Positions 10,305-50,939 of a stretch of DNA of 52,303 nucleotides are shown piece after piece. How positions within the stretch are numbered: position 1 is the stretch's first letter; every line of letters begins with the position of its first letter. The notes beneath the pieces are model-generated. The model saw nothing but the letters and a program-made list of their open reading frames with translations, was not told the DNA's origin and searched no databases. This stretch comes from a bacterium (GTDB lineage: Bacteria > Patescibacteriota > Minisyncoccia > UBA6257 > GWB1-50-10), in NCBI GenBank assembly GCA_021791395.1, contig JAJYWR010000006.1, forward strand, positions 1 to 52,303, read 5' to 3'. Position numbers and translations under genes: made by a program.

Positions 10305-11240
10305 TTAAATGCCGAGGAGTTTTCTTGTGATCGCAATGCGGAACCGTGAGAAGCGGATTGAGATCGATTCCACGACGAGGCCGACTTTCCACGCTGCGTC
10401 CGACATGACGCGGAAGGGCGCCCGGTGTGGATAAACGATGAATTGAAAGACGGCCCACGGGACGAACGCAAAGAAGTTCCAAATTCGATGGGAGCGGGCG
10501 CTCTCGTCTTCTTTAAAATAATCGCGGAATGCGGGATCGTGGATACGTTCGACGAAAATCCGTTCGAGGCCGCGCGCCCGTGCGTACTGCGTTCTCCACA
10601 ATTCCCTAAGTGAAGCATCGTGATGGTGTCGGACCTTAAGGTCCGGGAGGAATCTGATTTTTACCCCCTTCTTTTTGAGGCGGAGGAAAAGATCCCAGTC
10701 TTCGTAAGCTTGGATAGTCGGATCGAACATGGTGTCTTTTATGCAATCCGCCCGAATGGCGAAGTTTTTGGTGTCGATGTGTGCGGCGTATCGGCCGTCG
10801 AATTTTGAAAATACGAATCTCCCATCTTCTTCCTGCCGCATGCGGGTCCAGTAGTTTTCGCCCGCCGCTTCTTCAAAACCCATAACCGCATGCTCGTTTT
10901 CTTCCCAAATTGGGCGCGTAATCTGCTTCAACCAATCCTCGGGGACGATGCAGTCGGCGTCGGTCATGGCGATTATATCGCCTTGAGTTCTTGTGATGCC
11001 GGTATTTCGGGCGCTCGCCCGGCCGGGAATGCTTTCGTGCACCACTTTCAAAAAATCGGGGAAGCGTTTTGCGAAATCGTCGATAACACTTCGCGTTTCG
11101 CGGTCGGAATCATTCTCGACGACGATCACCTCGTACGGTTTTTCTGTTTGGTTGAGAACGGCGGTCAAGCAATCGGAAAGTGTTCCGCTCGCGTTCCGCA
11201 CGGGAACGATCACACTAATTTTTGATGCGGACTTTTTCAT
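10305..11240 (-). CDS. glycosyltransferase family 2
   Basis: ISVIVPVRNASGTLSDCLTAVLNQT..YEVIVVENDS plus a TDADC (DxD-type) motif. Confidence 0.85.
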   Translation of the reverse strand: MKKSASKISVIVPVRNASGTLSDCLTAVLNQTEKPYEVIVVENDSDRETRSVIDDFAKRFPDFLKVVHESIPGRASARNTGITRTQGDIIAMTDADCIVPEDWLKQITRPIWEENEHAVMGFEEAAGENYWTRMRQEEDGRFVFSKFDGRYAAHIDTKNFAIRADCIKDTMFDPTIQAYEDWDLFLRLKKKGVKIRFLPDLKVRHHHDASLRELWRTQYARARGLERIFVERIHDPAFRDYFKEDESARSHRIWNFFAFVPWAVFQFIVYPHRAPFRVMSDAAWKVGLVVESISIRFSRFRIAITRKLLGI

Positions 11241-12219
11241 AGAGCGTGGGCGACAGTTTTTTTATGCAGAGCCCAACTTTGCCGACGAGCCAGTCGAAGA
11301 AGTAGAAGATGGGGCGGTAATAGGTGATGAATTTGCGCAGGGCAAGCGATCGGAGATACCGGCGCTTTCGCTCTATCGTCCAGATGTCTTGCGGCTCCCG
11401 CGGGTGCGCGATGTCTATCGCGTCTGCTTTCTCGAGATTTCGTACCCACTCATCGTGGAAAAAGGAAGCCGGAAGCCAGGGTTTCGCCATTACCTCCCGG
11501 ACGAAATGGAAAATGATACCCTCCATTTTTTCGTAGGGCATGCGGTAAGCGCGGTGAGTTCGGAACGGATAGACGTTGAAGAGATCCGAGATCCGGTGCC
11601 ATTTTCGATAAAAGAGAAGGTTGATGGTTGCTTCTTCTCCATATTTGTTCAAAGTGCCGAAACGTTGGTAGAGGTTCATCAGTTTTTCAAACGAGTCCGC
11701 TTCGACGTTGCCGGTTTTGATGGCCATGATGCCGCTGTTGAATGCCCTCCCAAAGAGGGGATATTTCCGCTCCAGCGTTTTAAAAAGCTTGCGGTTGGCT
11801 TTGTTGCGCTTGATAAATTCCTGCCGTAAAGAAGTACCGTGGGCATTCGGCGAAGAAAAGGGCTCTTCGATGTGCACGAGTTCTTCGAGTGATGCCCTGA
11901 TGATAATATCGGCGTCGAGGAAAATAACCCGCTTCCATTTTTTAAAGAAGGGAGTGAAGAGATAGAATTTGTCGAGGACGACGGAAGGGTGCTCCACGCC
12001 GGCGATGCTTTTTTCCGAAAGCGCTTTGCAGGGAAAAACCAAGATCCCTTTCTCCCGGAACCACCGCAAATCCTCCTCCGGGATCTCATGCGCCAAGAGC
12101 AGGAAATCCCCCTGCCACCCTCCGTTCCAGTATGCGGACGAAAAGAGCTGCTTCGCCTGGGGGATGAAGTTCTTGTCGGCAAGGGTGACGAGGACATTTT
12201 TCTTGGAGTTATTATTCAT
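11215..12219 (-). CDS. glycosyltransferase family 8-like, tandem paralogue 1
   Basis: VLVTLADKNFIPQAKQLFSSAYWNGGWQGDFLLL...VIFLDADIII...FNSGIMA. The start was moved to ATG 12219. Confidence 0.75.
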   Translation of the reverse strand: MNNNSKKNVLVTLADKNFIPQAKQLFSSAYWNGGWQGDFLLLAHEIPEEDLRWFREKGILVFPCKALSEKSIAGVEHPSVVLDKFYLFTPFFKKWKRVIFLDADIIIRASLEELVHIEEPFSSPNAHGTSLRQEFIKRNKANRKLFKTLERKYPLFGRAFNSGIMAIKTGNVEADSFEKLMNLYQRFGTLNKYGEEATINLLFYRKWHRISDLFNVYPFRTHRAYRMPYEKMEGIIFHFVREVMAKPWLPASFFHDEWVRNLEKADAIDIAHPREPQDIWTIERKRRYLRSLALRKFITYYRPIFYFFDWLVGKVGLCIKKLSPTLYEKVRIKN

Positions 12220-13222
12220 GTTTGATGCGGATTTTTTCGTAGAAGGAAGGCAATGCCTTTTTAACACCAAGACCGATCTTGCCGATGATTCGATCGATGG
12301 ATGAAAGGAAAGGCCGCTGACTCAAAAAAGGCGATTCCGTTGTTTTGAAGCGGCGCACGTATCTTTTCCAGTCTCTTTTAGTCCATGTCTTTGCCGGTCT
12401 TTGTCGCATCGAAAGATTCATCGCATCCGCTCTCTCTAGGTTATTATTCCACTCTTGGTAAAAAACGGAAGTTGTAAGCCATGGTTTGTTGATGTCCTCT
12501 CCCACAGCATGAAGAATGCCGGCGTCGATTTTTTCGTAGGGAATGCCGTAGGTTCGATAGAGGTAAAACGGGAAAGCGTTTTCGTAGATTGGCAGTTTTT
12601 TCCATTTTTTATAGAAGAACAAGTTGAGCACCGTCTCTTCGCCGCAACGGTCGACATCATCGAAGTATCGGTAAAGAGCGAGGAGTTTGTCGAACACCCC
12701 CTCTTTTATTATTTTGGTTTTAAATGCAAGGACACCGCTGTTCAATGCAGTTTTTTCCATTGAATAATGCGCCTCGACTTCCCGGAGGACCTGTTGATTT
12801 TCGGAATCGGGTTCCAGAAACTCGTCTTGAAGCGTAAAACCGCCCGCCTCGCCGGCCGCGAATGATGCCCGGATGTGCACGAGTTCTTCGAGTGATGCCC
12901 TGACGATAATATCGGCGTCGAGATAGACGACGGTTTTCCACTGCTTGAAGAAGGGGGTGAAGAGATAGAATTTTGAGAGAGCCGCGGACCGGTGCGTCGG
13001 ATCGGAGAAGGTCTCGGATGTAAGCGCCCTGCAGGGAAAAACGATGATCCCTTTCTCCCGAAACCACCGCAAATCCTCCTTCGGGATCTCATGCGCCAAG
13101 AGCAGGAAATCCCCCTGCCACCCTCCGTTCCAGTATGCCGACGAGAAAAGTTGCTTCGCCTGGGGAATGAAGTTTTGGTCGGCAAGGGTTACTAGAACAT
13201 TTTTCTTGGGGTTATTGTCCAT
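12212..13222 (-). CDS. glycosyltransferase family 8-like, tandem paralogue 2
   Basis: It has the same N-terminal 70 aa as its neighbours, plus YLDADIIV and LNSGVLA motifs. Confidence 0.75.
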   Translation of the reverse strand: MDNNPKKNVLVTLADQNFIPQAKQLFSSAYWNGGWQGDFLLLAHEIPKEDLRWFREKGIIVFPCRALTSETFSDPTHRSAALSKFYLFTPFFKQWKTVVYLDADIIVRASLEELVHIRASFAAGEAGGFTLQDEFLEPDSENQQVLREVEAHYSMEKTALNSGVLAFKTKIIKEGVFDKLLALYRYFDDVDRCGEETVLNLFFYKKWKKLPIYENAFPFYLYRTYGIPYEKIDAGILHAVGEDINKPWLTTSVFYQEWNNNLERADAMNLSMRQRPAKTWTKRDWKRYVRRFKTTESPFLSQRPFLSSIDRIIGKIGLGVKKALPSFYEKIRIKHE

Positions 13223-14378
13223 GTTTGATGCGGATTTTTTCGTAGAGGTGCGGATTAACTTTCTTTATGAAGAGGCCGATGCGGCCTACGAGGCGATCGA
13301 TTTTACTTGTGAAGTGATTAAACGATCGGATAAGAGAAGTGGACCAGGCCTTGATGCGCCAACGGGCGTTCGCGGCGAAGATTTTTATGTGCCACCCAAC
13401 AAAGGAAGTAAACCCCATCGTCCGCCAGCCGATGAGTGAAGCATAGCCTCTTATTCGCCACCAGGCATGCATAATGCCGGAACTCAACGGGCGGGTGTGG
13501 AAGGCCAGGGAGATGAAAAAACCAGGAACCGCAAGGGCATGGAGATACTTTTTTTCTTCTTCTTCCGTCCAGACTTTTACCGGCGCCGGTCGCTGCGAAA
13601 AATTCATCGCATCAGCTCTCTTGAGATTCCGCGTCCACTCGGCATGAAAGGGGCTCCCGAGGTCCCAAGGCTTTATCGATTCGACGAAGTGGACAATGAT
13701 TGCCCGGAGGCGTTCATATCCCAGGCCGTACGTGTCGTTCATGTATTTTGGGTATGCATTGTAAACGACGGAGAGCATTTTCCACTGCCGGTAGAAATAC
13801 AAGTTGAACGTTCCTTCCTCGCCGCACAAATTCAAGGGGCCGAACTTCCGATAGAGTGCCGTGATCTCGTCGAAGGAGTTGTCTTGAATAAAATCCGTGT
13901 TGAAAGCGAAAACCCCCGTATTGAACGCCCTTCCGCGGAGAGAATAGGATTCTCGGAGTTCTTTGAAGAGTTTGCGATTTTTTCTCGAAAACTCCTTCTT
14001 GAAATTGAGTCCGGTTGCGTTTGGGGCAAGGAATCCGGTCGTCTCCGTCAACCGCTCGAGTGAGGCTTTAACGATGATGTCGGCGTCGAGGTAGACGACG
14101 GTTTTCCACTGCTTGAAGAAGGGGGTAAAGAGATAGAATTTTGAAAGAACCGTTGCCGGGTGCTGCCGTTCCCCGATGATTCCCTCGCCGAGCGCCCTGC
14201 AGGGAAAAACGATGATCCCTTTCTCCCGAAACCACCGCAAATCCTCCTTCGGGATCTCATGCGCCAAGAGCAGGAAATCCCCCTGCCACCCTCCGTTCCA
14301 GTATGCCGACGAGAAAAGTTGCTTCGCCTGGGGAATGAAGTTTTGGTCGGCAAGGGTCGTGAGGACGTGCTCTTTCAT
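13212..14378 (-). CDS. glycosyltransferase family 8-like, tandem paralogue 3 (longer C-terminus)
   Basis: It shares the N-terminal module and has YLDADIIV and FNTGVFA motifs. Confidence 0.75.
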   Translation of the reverse strand: MKEHVLTTLADQNFIPQAKQLFSSAYWNGGWQGDFLLLAHEIPKEDLRWFREKGIIVFPCRALGEGIIGERQHPATVLSKFYLFTPFFKQWKTVVYLDADIIVKASLERLTETTGFLAPNATGLNFKKEFSRKNRKLFKELRESYSLRGRAFNTGVFAFNTDFIQDNSFDEITALYRKFGPLNLCGEEGTFNLYFYRQWKMLSVVYNAYPKYMNDTYGLGYERLRAIIVHFVESIKPWDLGSPFHAEWTRNLKRADAMNFSQRPAPVKVWTEEEEKKYLHALAVPGFFISLAFHTRPLSSGIMHAWWRIRGYASLIGWRTMGFTSFVGWHIKIFAANARWRIKAWSTSLIRSFNHFTSKIDRLVGRIGLFIKKVNPHLYEKIRIKHGQ

Positions 14379-14407: not shown

Positions 14408-16468
14408 ATGAAGGTTTTGTATCTCATTGCTTCGGTGAATCATGGGCAGGGAGGACATCTCCACAGCATGAGAGATCTTGCGGAAAACCTTCGGGGGGAG
14501 GGTATCGTGCCGGTTGTTGCCGTTGTAGGCGATGGGAAAGCGACGCGCGTTTTTGATTCTCTTGATTGCAGGAAGTATTTTTTTCTTATGCGCCGCGCCG
14601 GAGAAATGAAGGAAATTCTCGAGAAACTGGAATCGGTGGTGCGCGTCGAGCAGCCGGATGCGATCCATTCATTCGGCAGCCCTGCTTTGTTTGGAGCGAT
14701 GTATCTTTCCCGGATTTTTCGGGTGCCGTTCGTCCATACTCAACTTGACGGCATGGGGCCGGGAGCGCGCTTTCCCCGTATTCCTTATTGTATCGTGTAC
14801 AGCAAGGAGGGGGAGGCCTATTTCAAAAACAATCCGAAATACCGGGAAACGGAGCTCTTTTGTTTTCCCAATCGAGTAGCAAGGGTTACTCCCGACAGAG
14901 CGAGGATAGCGCGACTGAAAAATGAATTACGGCTCCCCCCCGGTTTTATTTTTCTGCGGGTTGCGCGGATCTGCGAGCTATACCGGGAAAGTTTTTTAAA
15001 AAGCATCGCTCTCGTCGAGAGGCTTAATAAAGACGGCATTCAAGCAAACCTTCTTGTTGTCGGCGTAAAGGAAGATCTCGGGGTTTTTGAAGAACTGAAG
15101 CGGCGTGAGAGCGTCTCGGTGCGCATTGTCACCGGAGACGAATACACCTCCGATGCCGACAATCTTATGGATATCGCCGATTGCATCATTGGTGCGGGCA
15201 ACAGCTTCATGGCAGCTGCATCGCTGGGGAAAATACTGCTCACCCCTCCGTCGTTTGCGCGCTACCCCGTCTTGGTGGATGAAAGTAACTTCGAAAAATT
15301 TTTCTTCTATAATTTCCGGTGTACCTTCCCGCGCCCGGCCGATTTCGAACTGGACGAAGGCGAGCGCTATGCCGCGCTCATAAGACTCCTGCAATCCGAT
15401 CGCAGCCGGGAGCGCTACCGGGAATTTTCTCTTGAGCTTTTTGCCGAACATTTCGACGTACGAAAGTTCGTAAAAGAGTACATTCCGCTCTTGAGTCGCC
15501 TTGAATTCCGATCACTTGCGAGCGTGAAAGAGGAGTACCGTCGTCTTTTTGATACTCTTTCCGGCGAGAGTCGCCGCACGGGGGACGGAGTAAGCGCGGG
15601 ATGCCTTCGATTGATGAGCATCGCAATCCTCTCCAGAATGCAGATCCTGAGCTGGTTTCGGAGAGCCGGCTTAATGATTCGGAACCGTATGGATGGAATC
15701 ATCGATATGGCCGCCGCGCACGGTCTTGAAATAAGAGAATTCCGGTTGAAGAAGAAAACCTATGATTTAGTGGTACTTGCTGCAGCGCACAACGAGGAAC
15801 AACTTATGCCGCAGTTTCTTCGCGGTGCTGCGGCCGTCGCGGATGGTATCGTGCTCCTCGATGACGGAAGTACGGATGGCACGAACGAAACAGCCATTCA
15901 CGAAAAGATAGTTTTGAAGGTGCGCAAGAGGGCGCACGTCGGTTTTCGCGATCTTGAAAACAGGAACATGCTTCTTTCTCTCGCGGAACATATTTCCGCA
16001 CGGTGGTTTTTGTTCCTTGACATTGATGAAGTTGTTGACGATCGGTACCGCGACACGCTGCGGGAAACAGTGCGGCGGAGCGATGCCGATATTGTGGAAC
16101 TGGGAATCGTCAATCTTTGGGGTGATAACAGCCACGTCCGCGTCGATACGCCCCCGCCATCGGTGAACGGCGTCCTGTGGCGGCCGCGGCTGTTTCGGAA
16201 AAAAGACGCGATGCACATCGTTTCTTCGAAGCAGCTCCATTTTTCGCTCATACCGTATCAGACTAACCGACAAGAGCGCCGGCCGATCATGGTACGGCAT
16301 TACGGTAATATGACGAAGGAACGGCGGCGAATGAGATATGAACGGTACCGCAAGGAGGACGGCAATCTTGTTTATCAACCGAGCTACGAACATATCATCG
16401 CGGAGGATGTTGTCTTGAAGCCGATCGAAGTTGCCCGGGAGGAGGTTGATCGAGCTGGTGTGTTATGA
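14408..16468 (+). CDS. two-domain glycosyltransferase (GT4-like N-terminal half fused to a GT2-like C-terminal half)
   Basis: The N-terminus MKVLYLIASVNHGQGGH resembles GT-B enzymes. The C-terminal half has VVLAAAHNEEQLMPQFL..LLDDGSTDGT..FLDIDE. TATTAT at 14395-14400 lies 7 nt before the ATG. Confidence 0.65.
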   Translation: MKVLYLIASVNHGQGGHLHSMRDLAENLRGEGIVPVVAVVGDGKATRVFDSLDCRKYFFLMRRAGEMKEILEKLESVVRVEQPDAIHSFGSPALFGAMYLSRIFRVPFVHTQLDGMGPGARFPRIPYCIVYSKEGEAYFKNNPKYRETELFCFPNRVARVTPDRARIARLKNELRLPPGFIFLRVARICELYRESFLKSIALVERLNKDGIQANLLVVGVKEDLGVFEELKRRESVSVRIVTGDEYTSDADNLMDIADCIIGAGNSFMAAASLGKILLTPPSFARYPVLVDESNFEKFFFYNFRCTFPRPADFELDEGERYAALIRLLQSDRSRERYREFSLELFAEHFDVRKFVKEYIPLLSRLEFRSLASVKEEYRRLFDTLSGESRRTGDGVSAGCLRLMSIAILSRMQILSWFRRAGLMIRNRMDGIIDMAAAHGLEIREFRLKKKTYDLVVLAAAHNEEQLMPQFLRGAAAVADGIVLLDDGSTDGTNETAIHEKIVLKVRKRAHVGFRDLENRNMLLSLAEHISARWFLFLDIDEVVDDRYRDTLRETVRRSDADIVELGIVNLWGDNSHVRVDTPPPSVNGVLWRPRLFRKKDAMHIVSSKQLHFSLIPYQTNRQERRPIMVRHYGNMTKERRRMRYERYRKEDGNLVYQPSYEHIIAEDVVLKPIEVAREEVDRAGVL

Positions 16469-25497: not shown

Positions 25498-25696
25498 ATC
25501 AATCAGTCCTTTCTTATATTCACTTTCTAAAAAACTCTCAATTGTACTATGTTGGTATTATACCACTCTTCATTATTTTTGTCAAAATCCCCGCCAAATC
25601 CCGCCATTTCCGCACTTTCGGTATCCCGCCCGCTCTCGCCCCCGTTTTCTCCCGCCCTGCACCCGTTCTGCCCCCCGCTCTCCCTCAAAAATTACA

Positions 25697-25739
25697 GGCC
25701 CCCCGCTCTCCTCGAATTTTTGAAGGAGACCGGAGGGCC
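25697..25739 (+). repeat. REP-like palindromic element, copy 1
   Basis: ggccccccgctctcct-cgaatttttga-aggagaccggagggcc forms a ~16 bp imperfect stem. It is preceded by decayed direct copies of the left arm at 25625-25640 and 25671-25686. Confidence 0.75.
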
Positions 25740-25797: not shown

Positions 25798-26556
25798 ATG
25801 AGGAGGGGGAGGCTAACCGAAGACGGGATCTTTCACGTCTATAATCGAGGGGCCGATAAGCGGGAAATCTTTCGTGATAGCGACGATTACTTGCGTTTTA
25901 TTCATGCGTTATACGAATTCAACGACGAAGATCCGGCTGGCAATATGACCTACGGCTTCGCCAAAAATCCCACCCAGATTTCGATGGTTGACTTCCGAGG
26001 TGTTCCGTCATTGAAACCAAAACACCCGGAGAAGTTGCTCGTTGATGTCTTGGTGTTCACTCTTATGTCAAATCATTTCCATCTTCTCCTGAAACAAAGG
26101 AAGAAAGATGGAATTATGAAATTCATGCAGAAGGTATGTGCTGGGTATGCACTTTATTTCAATGAAAAAAATAAAAGGAGCGGCGTTTTGTTTCAGGGCA
26201 GATTCAAAGCGGTAGAGGTTACGAGTAATGAACATCTCCTCCATTTGCCGTATTATATTCACGCCAACCCCCTGGATTTAAATACGGGTGGAGCGGATGA
26301 GATTAAATTTTTGGATTCGTACCGCTGGAGTAGTCACATGGATTATTGCGGGTGGAGGAACTTCCCTTCCGTTACTCAGAGAGAATTCCTTTTGGAATTT
26401 TTTAATGGTGAGAAAAATTATCGAAAGTCAATTACCCAGTGGGTTAAGGAAAGGAGTAAGAATCTCCGGAAGATTAAGGACGTTGCCCTGGAAGAAGTTG
26501 CTGTTTTCCTTTTCGTGACTACCTTTAGCTTTCAGTTATTATTGGGTGGCGGCTGA
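25798..26556 (+). CDS. REP-associated tyrosine transposase (RAYT; IS200/IS605-like Y1 HUH transposase)
   Basis: HUH motif in LMSNHFHLLLK and the catalytic-Tyr region LPYYIHANPLD. Overall length and order fit RAYT/TnpA-REP proteins. TAGAAT at 25786-25791 lies 6 nt before the ATG. Confidence 0.8.
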   Translation: MRRGRLTEDGIFHVYNRGADKREIFRDSDDYLRFIHALYEFNDEDPAGNMTYGFAKNPTQISMVDFRGVPSLKPKHPEKLLVDVLVFTLMSNHFHLLLKQRKKDGIMKFMQKVCAGYALYFNEKNKRSGVLFQGRFKAVEVTSNEHLLHLPYYIHANPLDLNTGGADEIKFLDSYRWSSHMDYCGWRNFPSVTQREFLLEFFNGEKNYRKSITQWVKERSKNLRKIKDVALEEVAVFLFVTTFSFQLLLGGG

Positions 26557-28885: not shown

Positions 28886-28947
28886 TATTTCAATTATACC
28901 CCATCTCTGCATCATGCGAATTTGCCCCTTTTGCCCACGGAATTTTT

Positions 28948-28990
28948 GGCCCCCCGCTCTCCTCGAATTTTTGAAGGAGACCGGGGGGCC
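28948..28990 (+). repeat. REP-like palindromic element, copy 2
   Basis: ggccccccgctctcctcgaatttttgaaggagaccggggggcc is near-identical to copy 1. Confidence 0.75.
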
Positions 28991-34207: not shown

Positions 34208-34236
34208 TTTTTTATCTTGGTTATTCACAGGTTTGA

Positions 34237-34278
34237 GGGCCCCCGGTCTCCCTCAATTTTTGAAGGAGACCGGAGGGC
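34237..34278 (+). repeat. REP-like palindromic element, copy 3
   Basis: gggcccccggtctccctcaatttttgaaggagaccggagggc has the same loop and right arm as copies 1 and 2. Confidence 0.7.
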
Positions 34279-34327
34279 AAAATTTTTTTGGGGGTTGTTT
34301 GACGGGGGAAGGGGAGTTTGGTAGCGT

Positions 34328-40520: not shown

Positions 40521-42124
40521 AAAGACCGAAGATCATTTTCGTGACGGGCGGGATCATTTCCGGCATCGGCAAGGGGGCTTCAGCAGCCTCCATTAGTTTT
40601 CTTTTGAGGTCGCGCGGCTATCGGATCTTTCCCATTAAGATGGACCCTTATCTCAACAAAGATGCCGGCACCATGAATCCGTACCAGCACGGCGAGGTTT
40701 TCGTGACGGAGGACGGCGCGGAAACCGATCTCGATTTAGGTCACTACGAGCGGTTTTTGAACATGAATTTGGATAAGTTTTCCAATTTCACGACCGGTTC
40801 GGTTTATTCAACCGTCATGGATCTCGAGCGGCACGGAGACTTTTTGGGAAAGACTATTCAGATCATCCCGCACGTCACGAATGAGATCAAGCGGAGGATT
40901 ATAAAACCAGCCGAGGAAAAGAAAGCCGACATCGTGGTGATTGAAATCGGGGGAACGGTCGGCGACATTGAAGAAGAGCCGTTCCTCGAAGCAGCGCGGC
41001 AAATCTCCGGCGAATACGGAGAAGAAAACGTTTCATTTATCCACGTGGTGAAGATTGATTATGTGTTTCCTTCAGAAGAAGAGAAAACCAAACCGATTCA
41101 GCAGTCAGTGCGGCTTCTTCGAGAAGCCGGCATTCATCCCGATTTTTTGATCGTACGATGTAAGAATGAATTCGACGGCGAAATCAAGGAAAAGATAAGC
41201 ATGTTCACGAACGTGCCTCCCGACCACATCGTCGAAGCGCCGAACGCGGGGAGCATTTATGAAGTGCCGCTCAACTTCAGAAAGAAGAAGCTTGATGAAA
41301 ATATTCTGAAATCGCTCGCGCTGCCGATCAAAAAATTGGATATCACTCCGCTCCAGCGGAGGATTAAAAAGATGAAGGGGATCACAAGGACGATCAAAAT
41401 CGGCCTCGTTGGAAAATACGTCGTGAATCCGGATGCGTACCTTTCGGTTATCGAAGCCGTCAAACACGCTGCGATCGAAGCGGGTGTGAAGGCGGATATT
41501 ATTCAAGTCGATTCGGAGCGGGATGATGTTTTGAAGAATATAAAGAATCTCGACGGTATCATTGTTCCTGGAGGCTTCGGCAGACGCGGCATCGAGGGAA
41601 AAATAAAGGCGATTAAATACGCCCGGGAGAATAAGCTGCCTTTCTTGGGGCTTTGCCTCGGCCTTCAAGTTGCGGTCATCGAATTTGCACGCCACGTTGC
41701 CGGTCTCGGGCGCGCGAACAGTACCGAATTCGACTCCCGGACGCCCAATCCGGTCATCGACATCATGCCATCTCAGAAGAATGTGAAGGACTTGGGCGGG
41801 ACGATGCGTTTGGGTTCATGGGACATGGAACTCGTGAAGGGGACGAAAGCGTACGAGATTTACGGCGGTCCCTCCGCAAAGGAGCGTCACCGGCATCGCT
41901 ATGAAGTGAACCCCGCCTACCACGATGTTTTGGAAAAGAACGGGCTTGTTTTTTCGGCGTGGTCAAAAGATGACGATCGGCTTATTGACATGGTGGAGCT
42001 TCAAGATCACCCATTCTTCGTCGGTACGCAGGCGCATCCGGAATTCAAATCGAGATTTTTGGTCCCACACCCGCTCTTTGTGTCATTTATGAAGGCGGCC
42101 GCTCGAAAAAATTTCAAATCCTAA
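40517..42124 (+). CDS. pyrG: CTP synthase
   Basis: [16 protein letters not shown]...[22 protein letters not shown]...GLCLGLQ...HRHRYEVN. Confidence 0.95.
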
Positions 42125-42252
42125 TACCTAAATCCTAGACAATATCAAAATTCCAATATAAGAGATTATAAACACGATGTTTTGAATTTTGAATTTAGGG
42201 CATCGGGATTTATTTGGGATTTAGGATTTTGAAATTAGGATTTCGGTATTGG

Positions 42253-45500: not shown

Positions 45501-46754
45501 ATGACTTCATCTGATAAAATAGCGAAAATTTTAAGGACCGACAAGGATTATATCGAGAAGATCGAACGTCATTTCTCCGAGATCACGAAGAAGGAAGGTA
45601 TCATGGACGCGATCATGGCGGAGAACGAAAAGAAAATGTCCGATCGGCTATCGCGCCTCGATGTGGACCGAAATGCCGGTGCGAAGGAGATTTATGATGC
45701 CTTGATATCGAAGATAGAGGCCGATAATCACGCCGTATCCATCGCGCTCGGCAATCCGTCGCTCACAAAAATGAGTGACTACGAGGGCATTGTGGAAGCA
45801 ATCAAGAAGGTGAAGGGGGTCGAGCGGGGATTTTTTTTGAAGAAGGAAAAAGCGATCGAATTTTTGAAAAAGGAACCGCCGAAGAAGATACTCGAATTTC
45901 TGAAATACGATTCAGTCGACGCGATGCTCGAGCATGAGGATCTTTTCGAGGTCATGAGCACTCTTCGCTTCATCGAGGGGAGCGAGTGGCTGAATGAAAC
46001 CTTCTTCAAGCAGTACGAAACGCTCACGCCAGCCGACTTTGAAGAGCGGGAAATTGTCATTCGGCCGCTTCCGGAAAAATGGGGACCCGCAGCCCAAGAA
46101 TTCGTCAACAAGAAGTGGCACAATTTGAGTCATTTGAAGGAAATGGGCGTTGTGTTCGTCATCCCGCTTTCACTCGGCATTTCGGGCGAACTTTTGCGGA
46201 TGATGGCTTTAACCTTCCACTATTTGAACGAAATCCCGTTCTACTCCGACATGATCAGGCGATGTGCCGATTTGCCGGAGACCTTCGCGGCGAATCTCAT
46301 TTCGCTCCTCCGGGGCGATGTTCTCGACCGGCATATGCCCGAGGGGGAAAAGACGCTTTGGCTCGTCGTTCAGCGGTATCTCACAAAAGACGACGAGAAT
46401 GAATGGCGACTTTTCGTGCCACATTTGAATCCGGAGGCGATCCATTGGGTGAAGGCGGGGCATGACATCATGAAGCTGGGGGAGGTTCTAAATTACGAAG
46501 GCGTCGATTTGAGCTTTTGGGCGGATCTCGACTGGGTCGGCGATTTCTTCAAGGATGAGCTCGGAGAAGATACGCTCGTGAGCTTCAATCTTGTCGACAC
46601 CGTGATGAGCTTGGTTGAGGAGAAGGAATCGATCAAGTTCATGTATCATCATCAAGAAGCGCTCTGGAATCAGGTTTTCGCATCATACTTCTCGTTCGGG
46701 GAGATGGAGAAGTTTTCGAAGGACTACCTGCCGCAGGGATACTTTGAGATTTGA
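45501..46754 (+). CDS. conserved hypothetical protein (417 aa) embedded in the sugar-phosphate cluster
   Basis: A long ORF with no motif I can assign. Confidence 0.5.
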   Translation: MTSSDKIAKILRTDKDYIEKIERHFSEITKKEGIMDAIMAENEKKMSDRLSRLDVDRNAGAKEIYDALISKIEADNHAVSIALGNPSLTKMSDYEGIVEAIKKVKGVERGFFLKKEKAIEFLKKEPPKKILEFLKYDSVDAMLEHEDLFEVMSTLRFIEGSEWLNETFFKQYETLTPADFEEREIVIRPLPEKWGPAAQEFVNKKWHNLSHLKEMGVVFVIPLSLGISGELLRMMALTFHYLNEIPFYSDMIRRCADLPETFAANLISLLRGDVLDRHMPEGEKTLWLVVQRYLTKDDENEWRLFVPHLNPEAIHWVKAGHDIMKLGEVLNYEGVDLSFWADLDWVGDFFKDELGEDTLVSFNLVDTVMSLVEEKESIKFMYHHQEALWNQVFASYFSFGEMEKFSKDYLPQGYFEI

Positions 46755-46756
46755 GC

Positions 46757-46904
46757 GGAACGGGAATTTCTTCTCTGCCGGCACCGGGCGTTCGCTTGCT
46801 CCAGCGGCAAGCACCGCCCTGCGCTCTCGGCGAAAAATCCGCCAAGGGCGGAACCAATCTTTTTCGCCTCCGAGAGCTGCCATACGGGAAGAAGCTCCTG
46901 TTCC
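46757..46904 (+). repeat. structured ~150 nt element, copy 1 (candidate ncRNA/hairpin-nested element)
   Basis: It starts 3 nt after the stop codon. A 19 bp outer stem (46757-75/46886-904) encloses conserved hairpins. A T-run follows at 46905-14. Confidence 0.65.
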
Positions 46905-46930
46905 TTATTTTGTTGTAATATAATGAAGAG

Positions 46931-47818
46931 ATGAGGAATTTATTGAACACCTTACAATGGGCGGAAGAAAAAGGAGTGGCGTTGCCGCATTTCAACATTG
47001 CGGGATATGAACAGTTCAAGGCGATTGCCGAAACCGCGCGGGATATGAAACTCCCGGTCTTGGTCGGCGTTTCGGAGGGCGAACGGGGATATTTGGGTAC
47101 GAAGCAGGTACGGGATCTTCTCTCGAGTTACAACGAGGAGCATGGAGATAAAGAACATGACGGCGGATTTTGGCTTTTCTTGAATGCCGATCACACGCAT
47201 GATCCGGCGCTCGCGAAAGAAGCGGCCGCTGCCGGTTTCGATGAGGTTCTTTTCGACGGCGGGAAGTTGCCGCTCGACGAAGACATCAAGCAGACCGGGG
47301 AAGTCGTGAAAACGCTCAAAAATATTAACCCCGCGCTCGTCATGGAGGGTGAAATGGGATATATCGGGTCGGATTCGGAAATATGGGACAAGATTCCGGA
47401 AGGCGCCGCGCTTTCGCCCGATGCCCTTACGAAGCCGGAAGATGCCGCCCGGTTCGTTTCCGAAACGGGCGTCGATATGCTCGCACCGGCCGTTGGGAAC
47501 GTCCATGGAATGTTTCGCGGCGGCCACGATCCTCGGCTCGACATTCAGCGCATCAAAGCGATCAAAGATGCGGTGAAGATCCCCTTGGTGCTCCACGGCG
47601 GGAGCGGTACTGTCGATGAGGATTTCGCGGCGGCGATTGATGCGGGTATTACCATTGTCCACATTTCAACTGAAATCAGGGTTGCGTGGCGGAAGGGTGT
47701 CGAGTATGGATTGGAGGAAAAACCCGACGAAGTTGCTCCCTATAAGATCATGCCAGCGGCGATCGAAGGAATGAAAGCGGTCATTGAGGCAAGGATGAAA
47801 TTATTCTACAAACAATAA
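46931..47818 (+). CDS. fba: class II fructose-bisphosphate aldolase
   Basis: LPHFNIAGYEQ...LNADHT...LVLHGGSG. TATAAT at 46919-24 lies 6 nt before the ATG. Confidence 0.85.
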   Translation: MRNLLNTLQWAEEKGVALPHFNIAGYEQFKAIAETARDMKLPVLVGVSEGERGYLGTKQVRDLLSSYNEEHGDKEHDGGFWLFLNADHTHDPALAKEAAAAGFDEVLFDGGKLPLDEDIKQTGEVVKTLKNINPALVMEGEMGYIGSDSEIWDKIPEGAALSPDALTKPEDAARFVSETGVDMLAPAVGNVHGMFRGGHDPRLDIQRIKAIKDAVKIPLVLHGGSGTVDEDFAAAIDAGITIVHISTEIRVAWRKGVEYGLEEKPDEVAPYKIMPAAIEGMKAVIEARMKLFYKQ

Positions 47819-48375
47819 TGGTGATCCTTATCGCTCTCGATGCGATTCTCATTGCAGTGCTCATCTTTCTTCTTGCGTCGCTCATTTATTCGCAGCGCGC
47901 CGGTGCACCGTATGTCCCCATCGAACGGAAAGCGATGCGCCGTATATTGGAGTGGGGGAATCTCAGCCCGCAGGATGTCGTTTTCGATTTCGGGTCGGGT
48001 GATGGCAGGGTTCTTATCGAAGCGGTGCGCCGGTTCGGCGCTCGCGCCGGGATTGGCTATGAAATCTCGTGGTGGCCGTATTTTAAGTCAAAGCTCTTAC
48101 TAAAAAAGAATGGTCTTGTTGGCAAGGTGAAAGTGGAAAGGAGGAGCATTTTCAATATACCGGAATCGATTTTTTCAGATGCCAATGTCTTCTATGTCTA
48201 TACGTCGCCGGAAACCATGAAAAGGCTTGCCGTGACCGAGTTCCCGAAAATGAAAAGGGGTTCGAAGATCATATCGCCGTCGTTCAGGATTCCAGATGGC
48301 GATCATAACTTTCACCTTGTTGATTCGACGGATATCGGTTGGCACCGGGTTTTTATTTATGAGAAAATAAAATAA
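47818..48375 (+). CDS. class I SAM-dependent methyltransferase with N-terminal TM helix
   Basis: VVFDFGSGDGRVLIEA (motif I). No NPPY motif, so it is not HemK. Confidence 0.6.
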   Translation: MVILIALDAILIAVLIFLLASLIYSQRAGAPYVPIERKAMRRILEWGNLSPQDVVFDFGSGDGRVLIEAVRRFGARAGIGYEISWWPYFKSKLLLKKNGLVGKVKVERRSIFNIPESIFSDANVFYVYTSPETMKRLAVTEFPKMKRGSKIISPSFRIPDGDHNFHLVDSTDIGWHRVFIYEKIK

Positions 48376-48469
48376 CGCGAATTACGCGGATACGATATGT
48401 GAATGCCGCGAAAACGAATTTTGCATCATTTGCATGACATATTCGTAATTTCGCATTATACTTGGACCC

Positions 48470-49201
48470 ATGGAAACTCAGGCTATTAATAAAATTATTC
48501 TCGAAATCCGCGCCGGGACGGGCGGGGATGAGGCATCCCTTTTCGCGGGCGATCTGGCGCGTATGTACCAAAAGTATGCGGCAAAGAAGGGGTGGACGTT
48601 TTCCATCCTCGATGCCTCCGAATCAGGGGCAAGGGGATATAAGACCTTAATCGCGGAAATGGGCGGACTGGGGGTGTACGATGCCTTGAAACAGGAATCG
48701 GGTGTCCACCGCGTGCAACGGGTGCCGGTTACCGAGCGGCAGGGGAGGATCCATACGTCAACGGCTTCGGTAGCGGTTCTCCCAATCGTGGAAGCAAAAG
48801 CAGTCGAAATAAAAGAAAGCGATCTGGAGGTCACTTTTTCCCGGGCAGGCGGCCCCGGCGGCCAGAACGTGAACAAGGTTGAGACGGCCGTCCGCATTCT
48901 CCACAAGCCGACGGGCATCGTGGTTTCGTGCCGCTCGGAACGATTTCAGCATGCGAACCGCGAGAAGGCGATGGAAATCTTGCGAGCGAAGCTTTACGAG
49001 ATAGAGCAATTGAGAGCGACCGGATCGATCGACGAGATGCGGCGCGCGCAGATTGGTTCGGGAGAGCGATCGGAGAAAATACGGACCTATAATTTCCCTG
49101 AAGACCGGATTACCGACCACCGGATCGGCAAGAAATTCCACAATATCGAAAAGATCATGGAAGGGGATTTCGATCCCATCGCGAGAGCCTTCGCAAAGTG
49201 A
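48470..49201 (+). CDS. prfA: peptide chain release factor 1-like, lacking N-terminal domain 1 (243 aa)
   Basis: [19 protein letters not shown]...[26 protein letters not shown] (PxT motif)...[20 protein letters not shown] (GGQ). TATACT at 48457-62 lies 7 nt before the ATG. Confidence 0.85.
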
Positions 49202-49360
49202 TTTCTGCATTTCTCGCAAACACGCGTCGGTTTTCCCTGCGAGAAAACCGCGCTCGTTCTCAACCTTGCTCTCTCGCTCCGCTCGAACTGTGCCCGCTCG
49301 GTTTCCGAAACGGTTTATTCAAAATGCAGAAACCACTTCTTTATTAATAAAGTAATAGTG

Positions 49361-49514
49361 TAGCTGACGAGTGTTCTTTCCGTGTGGCAGCTCTCGGAGG
49401 CGAAAAAGATTGGTTCCGCCGAGGAGGCGGATTTTCGCCGAGAGCGCAGGGCGGCCTTGGCCGCTGGAGCCAAGGAACGACCCGGTGCCGGTAAGAAAGA
49501 ACACTCGTCAGCTA
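49361..49514 (-). repeat. structured ~150 nt element, copy 2 (inverted relative to copy 1)
   Basis: A 20 bp perfect outer stem (49361-80/49495-514) overlaps the stop codon of the 49512..50939 gene. The core is roughly 85-90% identical to copy 1. Confidence 0.65.
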
Positions 49515-50939
49515 GCTCCCTTGGCTGTTCAAGACGTCGATGTCGTTTTGATAGTTGTTTGCTTGGTCGACGACCGGCTGGCCGTACCAGAAGCGATAGG
49601 TGTACCAGTTGCCGCCGGCATAGTACTTGGCTGCCGCACACCGCTCGAGGAGTGTTTGATAAGGGGCGACTTTTTGATTCGCTTTGGCATAATTTATGCA
49701 ATTTGCGGAGGAAAGAAGGTCTTTCATGAGGAGTCCCGTTGCGACGAAGGCATCGGAATTGTTCCACGGGTTCGCGGGGCTATCCCCAGTGATCTGCGAT
49801 ATTTGTGATGCGTACAAATTCCATGTCGATGGTATGAATTGAGCCGGTCCCATAGCTCCGCCGTACGCGCCGTCGGAATTCGGACAGGAGACGTATGCGG
49901 ATTGCGAACCTGGATCGATGTTGAGTGACTGGAGAAGCTTCAAAAATATCGGTACGTCGCGAGTCGGATTCATCGCCGTGGTGTATGAGCATTTTCCGAC
50001 GTTTTGTCCCAAAGCGGACTCGCGGTTCAAGATGGCGAGAATGAGCGCAGCTCGGACGCCGGTCGCTCCTTCGGCAAGCTTCGCGTAGTTGTATGCCTGC
50101 TGGAAGGTTAGTTGCCCTCCGCCCAAGAGCTGGAAGATGCGGTTCCGTATTTGAGCCGCCGTTTCTTTGGTCTTCGCGAGGATTTTTTGATAGGTGGCCT
50201 CTTGTCCTCTTGTTTGTTTTAAAAGGGTGGTTTTTTGACTTTGCGTTGTTTGGAGGGAGAATTTTTGCGTGGTTTGAATGTTCTTGAAATTTTGGGTGTC
50301 GGAGAGTTCGCCGGTCAGGGTTTGCTGCTGAGCGACGAGCTGATCTCTCAATTTTTGTATTTGGTCCAACTCATCCCGCATATTGCTTTGGGCCAAAATG
50401 ATGTTATCGACGTTCGAAAAGAAGTCGGAGAGGTTGTTGTTGGCAAGGAGAATCTCGAGGAGATTTTGATTGTCACTTTCGTAAATGGCTTGAATCGAGG
50501 AGGCAAGAGCGTCTTTATTGACGTTGATTTGATTCTCGGTTTGGTTTATCTGGCTTTGGGTGTCCGTGATGTCGCTCGAAAGTTGCGTGAGTTTCAGATT
50601 AACCGCCTTTATTTGGAGGTTGATTTGCGATATTTTCGAGTTCAGATAACGAATCTCGCCGCTCAACGTACTGCCTTGGGCTTGATACTTACTGATTTGT
50701 TGTTGTTGTTGTTCAATTTGGTTCTCAAGATCGGCGAGCTGCGCTTCTAAGGCTGCCCGTTCAGCCTGAGTGTCGGTTGTTGTAGCCGTCTGCCCCGGGC
50801 TCGTCGAGGTGGTTGAGGTTACTCCCGTCGTTGAGGTCGTTTGCGCATGCACGCTGAAAAACCACGCGCCCAGAACGAGGAGCGCGCAAGCAAGAACGAG
50901 CTGTGTTTTTTTCTCACTCACTTCCTTATATAGTAACAA
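49512..50939 (-). CDS. secreted coiled-coil protein with C-terminal lytic transglycosylase domain
   Basis: Signal/TM helix, Q-rich coiled coil, then LAILNRESALGQNVG...GAMGPAQFIPSTW (SLT/MltB-like). The start is uncertain (TTG 50939 or GTG 50921). Confidence 0.75.
   Translation of the reverse strand: MLLYKEVSEKKTQLVLACALLVLGAWFFSVHAQTTSTTGVTSTTSTSPGQTATTTDTQAERAALEAQLADLENQIEQQQQQISKYQAQGSTLSGEIRYLNSKISQINLQIKAVNLKLTQLSSDITDTQSQINQTENQINVNKDALASSIQAIYESDNQNLLEILLANNNLSDFFSNVDNIILAQSNMRDELDQIQKLRDQLVAQQQTLTGELSDTQNFKNIQTTQKFSLQTTQSQKTTLLKQTRGQEATYQKILAKTKETAAQIRNRIFQLLGGGQLTFQQAYNYAKLAEGATGVRAALILAILNRESALGQNVGKCSYTTAMNPTRDVPIFLKLLQSLNIDPGSQSAYVSCPNSDGAYGGAMGPAQFIPSTWNLYASQISQITGDSPANPWNNSDAFVATGLLMKDLLSSANCINYAKANQKVAPYQTLLERCAAAKYYAGGNWYTYRFWYGQPVVDQANNYQNDIDVLNSQGS

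Follow-up and report, generated by a model that had tools for sequence, protein, structure and literature searches.

Branched, structured elements of about 125 nucleotides at gene ends in a Patescibacteria genome and its relatives

We analyzed a 52-kb stretch of a Patescibacteria genome (contig JAJYWR010000006.1, hereafter the window) in which the gene for a 417-aa protein (45501-46754) is followed by fba, a small methyltransferase-like gene, prfA and a convergent SLT-domain gene (49512-50939). The spacers at both ends of this block hold three copies of one structured element: c1 (46757-46904, + strand), c2 (49514-49361, - strand) and X (49196-49338, + strand). The first two had been pointed out in a preliminary description of this DNA, while X, a diverged and older copy, had escaped its reader. 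All three belong to a small, previously unannotated family of ~125-nt structured elements in Paceibacteria-type Patescibacteria. There is good evidence that this family is real, that its fold is conserved, that copies are gained and lost by insertion and that it has spread laterally; its role is most likely that of a structure at transcript ends.

Copies flanking the fba-prfA block

c1 and c2 lie 2.4 kb apart, inverted relative to each other, with a mean column identity of 85% over the whole element in a pairwise alignment. The module they share (126 nt in c1, 128 nt in c2) is 84.5% identical and its inner core 86.9%, in line with the 85 to 90% first described for a core of about 125 nt. It includes conserved blocks of 47 nt (96% identity) and 51 nt (84%), and the two copies differ by indels of 1, 1 and 2 nt. 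A 36-mer and a 23-mer string from the core occur exactly twice each in the window, against none expected from shuffled sequences.

The first copy opens 2 nt past the TGA of the 417-aa gene with an 11-nt arm, GGAACGGGAAT (46757-46767, +), which is locus specific: it has no homology to the c2 flank and is identical in the orthologue from a close relative of the window organism (JAMCYI010000016, here JAMCYI). The unit in common with c2 (TTCTT...AAGAA, 46768-46893, +; covariance-model match of 143.7 bits, E 2e-38) is predicted to form the proximal part of an outer stem P1 (46768-46783 with 46878-46893), a hairpin P2 (46786-46819, loop CCAGC at 46801-46805) and a stem P3 (46823-46877, cap AAG, bulge ACCAAUC at 46853-46859). 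It is closed by the complementary 3' arm GCTCCTGTTCC (46894-46904, +), whose JAMCYI form, ACTCCCGTTCC, pairs with the 5' arm at 10 of 11 positions. The T-run already noted after this copy, TTATTTTGTTG (46905-46915), directly follows P1, and a pattern scan lists the top of the stem together with this tail. fba follows c1 in the same orientation at a distance of 27 nt; its TATAAT box lies between them at about 46921-46926, and the whole intervening stretch is 100% conserved relative to JAMCYI.

The second copy has the same architecture on the opposite strand. Its 13-nt 5' arm, TAGCTGACGAGTG (49502-49514, -), contains the TAG stop codon of the SLT-domain gene, and its 3' arm, CACTCGTCAGCTA (49361-49373, -), forms with it part of a perfect 20-bp stem; both arms are 100% conserved in JAMCYI. 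The module between them (49374-49501, -) is matched by the covariance model at 135 bits (E 6.5e-36), and its P3 is capped by UCCUC. The arms of the two copies are thus, as had been described, unrelated to each other and complementary within each copy, and both copies stand in the same orientation to the gene upstream, starting at or just past its stop codon. The compensatory swap and inserted base pair reported in P2 are present as well; judging from the orthologues, the window form of c2 P2 (CCUUGGCU/GGCCAAGG) is the derived state, with one base-pair flip and one base-pair insertion.

X, whose module spans 49206-49328 (+), was detected by covariance models R2 (34.4 bits, E 2e-7) and R3 (96.5 bits). 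Its outer stem, AAGTGATTTCTGCATTT/AAATGCAGAAACCACTT, contains the TGA stop codon of prfA, and it is separated from c2 by an AT-rich spacer of 22 nt (49339-49360) that is 95.5% conserved and that could serve as a U-rich tail after either stem. Across this spacer, c2 and X face each other between convergent genes, like a pair of terminators. Orthologues of X are found in JAMCYI and in the genome WY2.bin70 (WY2; loci L003 and L002 among the loci that we retrieved and numbered) and in L051, whose 417-aa protein is 87% identical to that of the window.

Fold, constraint and distribution of the family

Both c1 and c2 are predicted to fold into a three-way junction with a long P1, the P2 hairpin and a long, bulged P3 capped by CCGCC/GGCGG, which recovers in both copies the arrangement proposed earlier. 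Fold energies are -79.6 kcal/mol for c1 and -89.2 kcal/mol for c2 (z = -7.1 and -9.8), values that none of 200 shuffled sequences reached. P1 comprises 18 to 21 bp and is nearly perfect. The opposite strands fold about equally well (c1, -79.6 versus -76.7 kcal/mol; c2, -89.2 versus -91.6 kcal/mol), and the asymmetry between G-U and A-C pairs is uninformative as to the strand for these two copies. X folds better as RNA on the - strand (-64.7 versus -43.5 kcal/mol). Read in the family sense orientation, it has no G-U pair and four A-C mismatches.

In the alignments fitted to the model, 96.6% of the paired cells (7 sequences) and 91.1% (11 sequences) hold a valid pair, and in 21 and 24 pairs, respectively, both partners have changed. 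The covariation scores are 0.33 and 0.44, against 0.14 and 0.18 in shuffled alignments, and none of 500 shuffles attains the observed value; as a control, sliding the 3' partner by 1 to 3 columns lowers pairing to 43 to 53%. An independent check comes from single-sequence minimum-free-energy folds, which give the same three-way junction for c1, c2, the Jorgensenbacteria copy introduced below and the possible distant member L087. P2 is the clearest case of covariation, as at least six different stem sequences surround the same C-rich loop: GCUUGCU/GGCAAGC, the c2 form given above, GGCUUG/CAAGCC, CCCCGCC/GGCGGGG, GGUUUUC/GAAAACC and CAAAUUCC/GGAAUUUG. The comparisons therefore support stems that covary across the family and a fold under selection, which was the first of three options put forward in the preliminary description.

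The rate of change points the same way. Between the window and JAMCYI, identity is 67 to 73% at third codon positions and 78 to 91% in other intergenic regions, against 91% for c1, 90% for c2, 96% for X, 94 to 95% for the inner core of c1 and 100% for the distal arms of c2. Divergence of the element is three- to sixfold slower than that of third codon positions, and its fastest-changing part is proximal P1, where some changes are uncompensated. Within the JAMCYI lineage, c1 and c2 have inner cores of 99% identity, with 0 or 1 changes among copies, and in the window both copies have in common a derived A in GCCA, so the two copies exchange sequence by gene conversion.

Similarity to described RNA families was not seen. 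With Rfam 15 at the gathering threshold, the 5' end of a 16S rRNA gene was the sole match in the whole window; at E<=10 over 46500-49800, one chance snoRNA match was returned and nothing else; and the related loci gave 16S and tRNA matches only. ARAGORN predicted no tRNA-like gene. The earlier failure to place the element in any known RNA family therefore holds in these scans.

The young form of the element is very rare. An exact scan with a 19-mer of the core against 185,579 species-representative genomes (GTDB representatives) returned three carrier species, the remaining matches being due to chance: JAMCYI (c1 and c2), WY2 (c2) and Candidatus Jorgensenbacteria GW2011_GWB1_50_10, with one copy upstream of dnaG. 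The same scan of JGI metagenomes gave as a true match the Jorgensenbacteria contig again and nothing further. As exact scans with 18-mers or 19-mers are blind to diverged members, these came from covariance models run on the retrieved loci, which place members at five or more unrelated loci and which, together with X, answer the question of whether further copies exist. The Jorgensenbacteria copy (L006, 3149-3273) stands alone in its intergenic region with no co-oriented gene in front of it, and a degenerate copy occupies the region upstream of dnaG in L088 (2511-2665). L054 (19786-19911) and L093 (20575-20692) carry a copy between the 16S rRNA gene and a response-regulator gene; these are distant genomes, L093 being a further contig of the Jorgensenbacteria genome that contains L006. 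L087 (3874-3993) is the possible distant member.

The members fall into subfamily A (c1, c2, the Jorgensenbacteria dnaG-upstream copy and L088) and subfamily B (X, L054 and L093), the latter with the common motif ACYGTGCCCGCTC. Unpaired motifs are conserved between the two, namely, the CCAGC loop, the bulge following GGAA and CGCUCUC. The L006 and L088 copies have opposite orientations at the dnaG locus, so either one was inverted in place across P1 or the two were inserted independently.

The Jorgensenbacteria core is 83% identical to that of c1, with an identical run of 29 nt, in a genome whose 417-aa orthologues are ~62% identical to the window protein; the coding DNA of closer relatives, with an 87% identical 417-aa protein, shows just 67 to 78% nucleotide identity. 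Since so few species carry the young subfamily, transfer between lineages is the simpler reading and vertical descent with conservation appears unlikely. A vehicle was sought in three pattern scans of IMG/VR, whose matches were chance ones, none passing the covariance model or nhmmer, and by BLAST against PLSDB plasmids and INPHARED phages, which gave no match.

Gene-end insertion and possible roles

(i) Sites with and without the element. The homology between c1 and c2 ends at mirror-image positions, starting at TTCTT and stopping at AAGAA, so the module sits precisely at the center of symmetry of a palindrome specific to its locus. Once joined, the flanks of c2 (TAGCTGACGAGTG | CACTCGTCAGCTA) make a perfect 26-nt palindrome, and those of c1 (GGAACGGGAAT | GCTCCTGTTCC) one that, in the JAMCYI form with ACTCCCGTTCC, is palindromic at 10 of 11 positions. 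The outer stems of L054 and L093 are perfect over 11 and 17 bp, and their sequences are again unrelated. Target-site duplications are absent at both c1 (..GGGAAT|..|GCTCCT..) and c2 (..GAGTG|..|CACTC..), where the flanks are instead inverted.

Synteny around the window is kept across relatives in which the 417-aa protein is 57 to 96% identical, and the corresponding sites can be compared. In place of c1 we found an unrelated 12-bp hairpin (L051), an unrelated perfect palindrome (L058), AT-rich sequence only (L059) or a different gene (L048 and L054); WY2, which is 94 to 97% identical to the c1 carrier JAMCYI, has an AT-rich palindrome instead of the whole c1-bearing spacer. L051 lacks c2, its X directly adjoining the SLT stop codon, and L048 holds another structured insert at the c2/X site. 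Simple bidirectional hairpins lie between prfA and the convergent gene in L054, L093 and L099. The site between the 16S and response-regulator genes is filled in L054 and L093 and empty in L091 (a window-type strain), L099 and L048. At these sites, relatives normally have gene-end hairpins, some of them perfect palindromes with no loop. From these patterns there is good evidence that copies are gained and lost as units, by insertion. Relatives thus hold plain hairpins, unrelated inserts or nothing at the c1, c2 and X sites, and we can only infer insertion into a pre-existing gene-end hairpin, since an empty site with the same palindrome was not found. The second option of the preliminary description, a small mobile element landing in terminator hairpins, gives the best account of the origin of the copies, considering the mirror-image ends, the plain hairpins in relatives, the patchy distribution and a similarity of copies in distant lineages far above that of the host genomes, and it is compatible with the first option; the part of it that named the RAYT of the window as partner is not supported, as that Y1_Tnp gene (25798-26556) has its own, different family of 43-nt palindromes.

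(ii) A probable terminator or 3'-end structure. The reading that we favor, with a probability of roughly one-half, is that of a low-copy, laterally spreading module that inserts at palindromes located at gene ends and is retained there as the terminator or 3'-end structure of the transcript from the gene upstream. That the ~125-nt module moves or is copied between sites and between lineages we count as shown, and likewise that each copy lies at the dyad of a locus-specific palindrome whose start coincides with, or falls inside, the stop codon of the preceding gene. Relatives carry ordinary terminator hairpins at such gene ends, and the palindrome arms become the distal part of P1. These arms could be an older gene-end hairpin or could have been made at or after insertion by fold-back copying of the upstream flank. 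The composite hairpin would then be transcribed with the upstream gene and probably kept as an intrinsic terminator, a block to 3' exonucleases or both, with selection maintaining its pairing. With the exception of the dnaG-upstream copy in L006, each copy has the orientation of the nearest upstream gene and begins no more than about 10 nt from the stop codon of that gene, and P1 of c1 with its T-run looks like an intrinsic terminator. Because X folds better on the other strand and has A-C mismatches without G-U pairs, the model suggests a structure used in whichever direction it is transcribed.

Several points weigh against this reading. An unbroken form of either palindrome, TAGCTGACGAGTGCACTCGTCAGCTA or GGAACGGGAAT(N0-8)ACTCCCGTTCC, was not found in L048, L051, L054, L058, L059 or WY2, and neither a transposase, a conserved terminal inverted repeat nor a target-site duplication was found for the element. 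Copy number is very low, with two young copies and one old copy per genome. A clear U-run follows c1 only; after c2 and X there is just the AT-rich spacer, and none is seen at the Jorgensenbacteria and L054 copies. A stem around a 100-nt structured insert is atypical of intrinsic terminators, and a terminator role that is purely structural leaves the conserved unpaired motifs (CCAGC, AACC.., CUGC) unexplained; these may be features recognized by a mobilizing enzyme or may fit a dedicated RNA. Last, the alignments behind the pair counts were fitted to the structure of the model, so that the counts are biased toward that structure.

(iii) A possible dedicated RNA. The main alternative, clearly less likely in our view, is a dedicated noncoding RNA (small, protein binding or self-cleaving or processing) whose functional product is the three-way-junction core. 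The long, perfect P1 would act in processing, e.g., as an RNase III site through which the core is freed from the 3' untranslated region, and lateral transfer of such a useful RNA gene would account for the patchy distribution. The covariation of P1, P2 and P3 across subfamilies agrees with such a role, as do the unpaired motifs that both subfamilies conserve, the 0 or 1 inner-core changes in copies of the JAMCYI lineage (which differs from the window by ~30% at third codon positions), the noncoding indels of 1, 1 and 2 nt, and the Jorgensenbacteria copy, intergenic and without a co-oriented gene ahead. However, orientation to local transcription varies, the L006 and L088 copies being inverted relative to each other, and X pairs better on the strand opposite to the family sense. 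Copies are also dispensable, as c1 is replaced in WY2 and many close relatives have none, and L088 is degenerate. A pattern scan found no promoter-like site ahead of c1 or c2, and there is no likeness to the ribozyme or small-RNA families of Rfam.

A bolder version of the mobile reading seems doubtful to us: a new mobile structured element that homes to the dyads of gene-end palindromes without terminal repeats, target duplication or a linked transposase, moves laterally and has a core with an activity of its own (e.g., self-cleavage or recruitment of a processing enzyme) that punctuates transcript 3' ends. If the module truly targets the centers of hairpins or palindromes, this points to an insertion mechanism not yet described, and if the core RNA has an activity of its own, it represents a new RNA class.

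(iv) Unlikely roles in DNA or in downstream regulation. It is unlikely that the element acts as a DNA-level site, i.e., as hairpins extruded in single-stranded or cruciform DNA and recognized by a recombinase or an HUH nuclease such as a RAYT-like protein, with the loops as contact points for propagation or a chromosomal function. The near-equal folding of both strands of c1 and c2, the two orientations at the dnaG locus, the conserved loops and the Y1_Tnp gene in the window would all suit this idea, but that gene is 21 kb away and is adjoined by its own unrelated palindrome (GGCCCCCCGCTCTCC..GGAGACCGGGGGGCC), with two more copies elsewhere in the window. Moreover, no common tetranucleotide precedes the copies, as an insertion of the IS200/IS605 type would need, and the co-orientation with the upstream gene, outside L006, points to a constraint on RNA.

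We consider very improbable a cis-regulatory leader (riboswitch or attenuator) in which P1 and the U-run would be a regulated terminator of the downstream gene. c1 does lie in front of fba, in the same orientation and with a U-run, and the L054 and L093 copies stand just upstream of a response-regulator gene. Against this, the downstream genes are unrelated, c2 and X face a convergent gene and dnaG is divergent; the 18 to 21 bp of near-perfect P1 leave no space for an alternative fold; the TATAAT box sits between c1 and fba; the same genes stand without the element in relatives; and Rfam returned no riboswitch match. The varying downstream contexts (fba, a convergent gene, a response regulator and a divergent dnaG) had us reject a riboswitch.

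The last option of the preliminary description, that c1 and c2 are a substrate for inverting the 2.4-kb fba-methyltransferase-prfA block, can be dismissed almost entirely, together with a recent segmental duplication: the copies are inverted, 2.4 kb apart and 85 to 96% identical, and they exchange sequence (99% core identity in JAMCYI, the common derived A), but gene order and orientation are the same in all carriers of both copies (the window, JAMCYI, L089 and L090) and in noncarriers, inversion would leave fba and prfA on the strand opposite to their operon, and the flanks of c1 and c2 have no common sequence beyond the module, which excludes a segmental duplication.

(v) Comparison with known repeats. 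IS1397 and ISKpn1 (IS3 family) and IS621 (IS110 family) insert at the center of extragenic palindromes (REP or palindromic units). They are autonomous, transposase-encoding insertion sequences of 1.2 to 1.4 kb, whereas the element has 125 nt and is noncoding. RPE (105 to 146 bp) and the intervening sequences of rRNA are small structured inserts that are sporadic, laterally spread and tolerated or co-opted inside functional sequences or helices: RPEs insert in frame in coding genes, while intervening sequences replace the tips of rRNA helices and are excised by RNase III. In our case the host structure is instead a gene-end hairpin. REP/REPIN sequences with their RAYT resemble the present case in being extragenic palindromes at gene ends, with a RAYT-like gene in the window; the element differs in being branched rather than a REP doublet and has no sequence in common with the 43-nt palindromes of the window.

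Compared by description, the ERIC/IRU repeats of Enterobacteriaceae, imperfect palindromes of ~127 bp, are alike in size, in their intergenic and transcribed position, often at gene 3' ends, and in their long stem (PMC3184786). Their presence at a site is patchy between strains, and effects on mRNA stability have been reported (PMC3184786). ERICs have terminal inverted repeats, target duplications and a flanking TA (PMC3184786) and occur in tens to hundreds of copies, whereas our element has no duplication, a copy-specific outer stem, a three-way-junction core and two or three copies per genome. SPRITE is likewise an interspersed repeat; the terminator-like structure predicted for its RNA suggests that it acts at the RNA level (PMC3184786). 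Its copies are numerous and share their whole sequence, whereas those described here have just the inner module in common and each locus has its own terminator-like outer stem. The Rickettsia palindromic elements (RPE) are also counted among structured interspersed repeats (PMC3184786). The closest kinds are therefore the ERIC, SPRITE, Correia and RPE repeats (PMC3184786) on the one hand and the palindrome-centered insertion sequences on the other, and the element is a member of neither. By analogy, it works like the structured repeats and may insert like the palindrome-targeting insertion sequences.

Patescibacteria genomes are tiny, and almost nothing is known of their noncoding elements or transcript ends. 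The family provides a testable case of a branched structure that recurs in gene-end hairpins, is exchanged between lineages and is then constrained, and its covariance model can be used to annotate such elements and to avoid spurious gene calls. One such call is the 61-aa open reading frame (ORF) over c2 in L089, which we take as spurious because the indels rule out coding.

Rejected classes and other repeats

A number of identities were tried for the element and rejected. Coding sequence does not fit indels that are not multiples of three (1, 1 and 2 nt). A miniature inverted-repeat transposable element was rejected for want of target duplication and family-wide terminal repeats and for the very few copies, the young subfamily having two per genome in the exact scan of the genome collection. 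The ends of c1 and c2 are TTCTT...AAGAA (5 bp perfect, ~9 bp imperfect), and those of the Jorgensenbacteria, L054 and L093 copies differ and merely pair with each other. An IS3 copy in L048 was rejected as a source, as its ends are unrelated to the element, and no related autonomous insertion sequence with matching ends was seen among viral contigs, plasmids, phages and this IS3. Derivation from IS200/IS605 does not agree with the differing 5' nucleotides (GAAT, AGTG, AGCC and CGAT) and the dissimilar P2 and P3. Regarding invertons, which are not among the rejected identities, the opposite orientations at the dnaG locus are found between two species, there is no invertase gene nearby and no promoter-like site lies within c1 or c2. 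A retron was rejected too: the architecture resembles msr-msd RNA, but no reverse transcriptase gene adjoins any copy, the neighbors being fba, convergent prfA and a response regulator.

The sole reverse transcriptase seen belongs to a diversity-generating retroelement at another Jorgensenbacteria locus, so a link to this class was rejected as well. That retroelement (L093, 12810-15238; GW2011_GWB1_50_10, LCQK01000003) lies between fba and prfA, where the window has the small methyltransferase-like gene. Its target gene codes for 231 aa and has a variable repeat at its end; the other components are an adenine-rich template repeat and a reverse transcriptase of 327 aa. prfA itself (48470-49201 in the window), which encodes release factor 1, is called at 243 to 254 aa in every genome examined; its match to Pfam PCRF begins at position 100 of the profile, and conservation of the 94 nt in front of the gene is poor (33% identity to JAMCYI), so that the N-terminal domain seems to be missing in this clade.

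The RAYT/IS200-like Y1 transposase gene (25798-26556, +; Pfam Y1_Tnp, E 1.6e-6) has a 43-nt palindrome, GGCCCCCCGCTCTCCTCGAATTTTTGAAGGAGACCGGGGGGCC, just upstream, with copies at 25690-25739, 28941-28990 and 34230-34279. Gene and palindromes look like a REP-RAYT pair in a Patescibacteria genome; the palindromes have no similarity to the element, which was therefore rejected as a REP/REPIN-RAYT sequence.

Other repeats were found at gene ends. A second interspersed family consists of AT-rich, long palindromic hairpins of ~120 to 150 nt, with copies in the CTP synthase/transketolase interval of the window (42109-42243), in L057 (2149-2297) and in L005 (3251-3392 and 6622-6749); the JAMCYI lineage has one inserted between pfkB and the gene for the 417-aa protein, which the window lacks. 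The insert of L048 mentioned above (14530-14705, -) is a different 150-nt structured sequence directly after the SLT stop codon, which its outer stem, GCTGAGGG/CCCTCAGC, contains; a part of 41 to 47 nt is repeated at L048 5256-5296 and L003 2908-2954, so the insert represents a further repeat family at this kind of site. Beside the Jorgensenbacteria copy, an element Z (L006, 2869-3062) has a stem of ~20 bp from the upstream stop codon and a fold energy of -94 kcal/mol and was not detected by the covariance models of our element.

Elsewhere in the window, a 97-nt inverted repeat of 87% identity (3-99, +, and 2414-2510, -) is a coding segment (..PGFDEEE.VKSLPNETPPVGVIKAL..) of two oppositely oriented genes and was rejected as a similar element, being repeated coding sequence and not structured. 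An ORF of 1848 aa (2263-7809, +) contains many internal repeats of the GN(V)GIGT type, and three tandem paralogous genes of ~1 kb each (11215-14378, -) have 300-nt repeats at 77 to 83% identity. A LAGLIDADG homing-endonuclease gene was found in or near the 3' part of the 16S rRNA gene in L054 (18735-19163) and L091 (1858-2286), and a run of short ATCAGC/GCTGAT repeats lies downstream of the 16S gene in L054.

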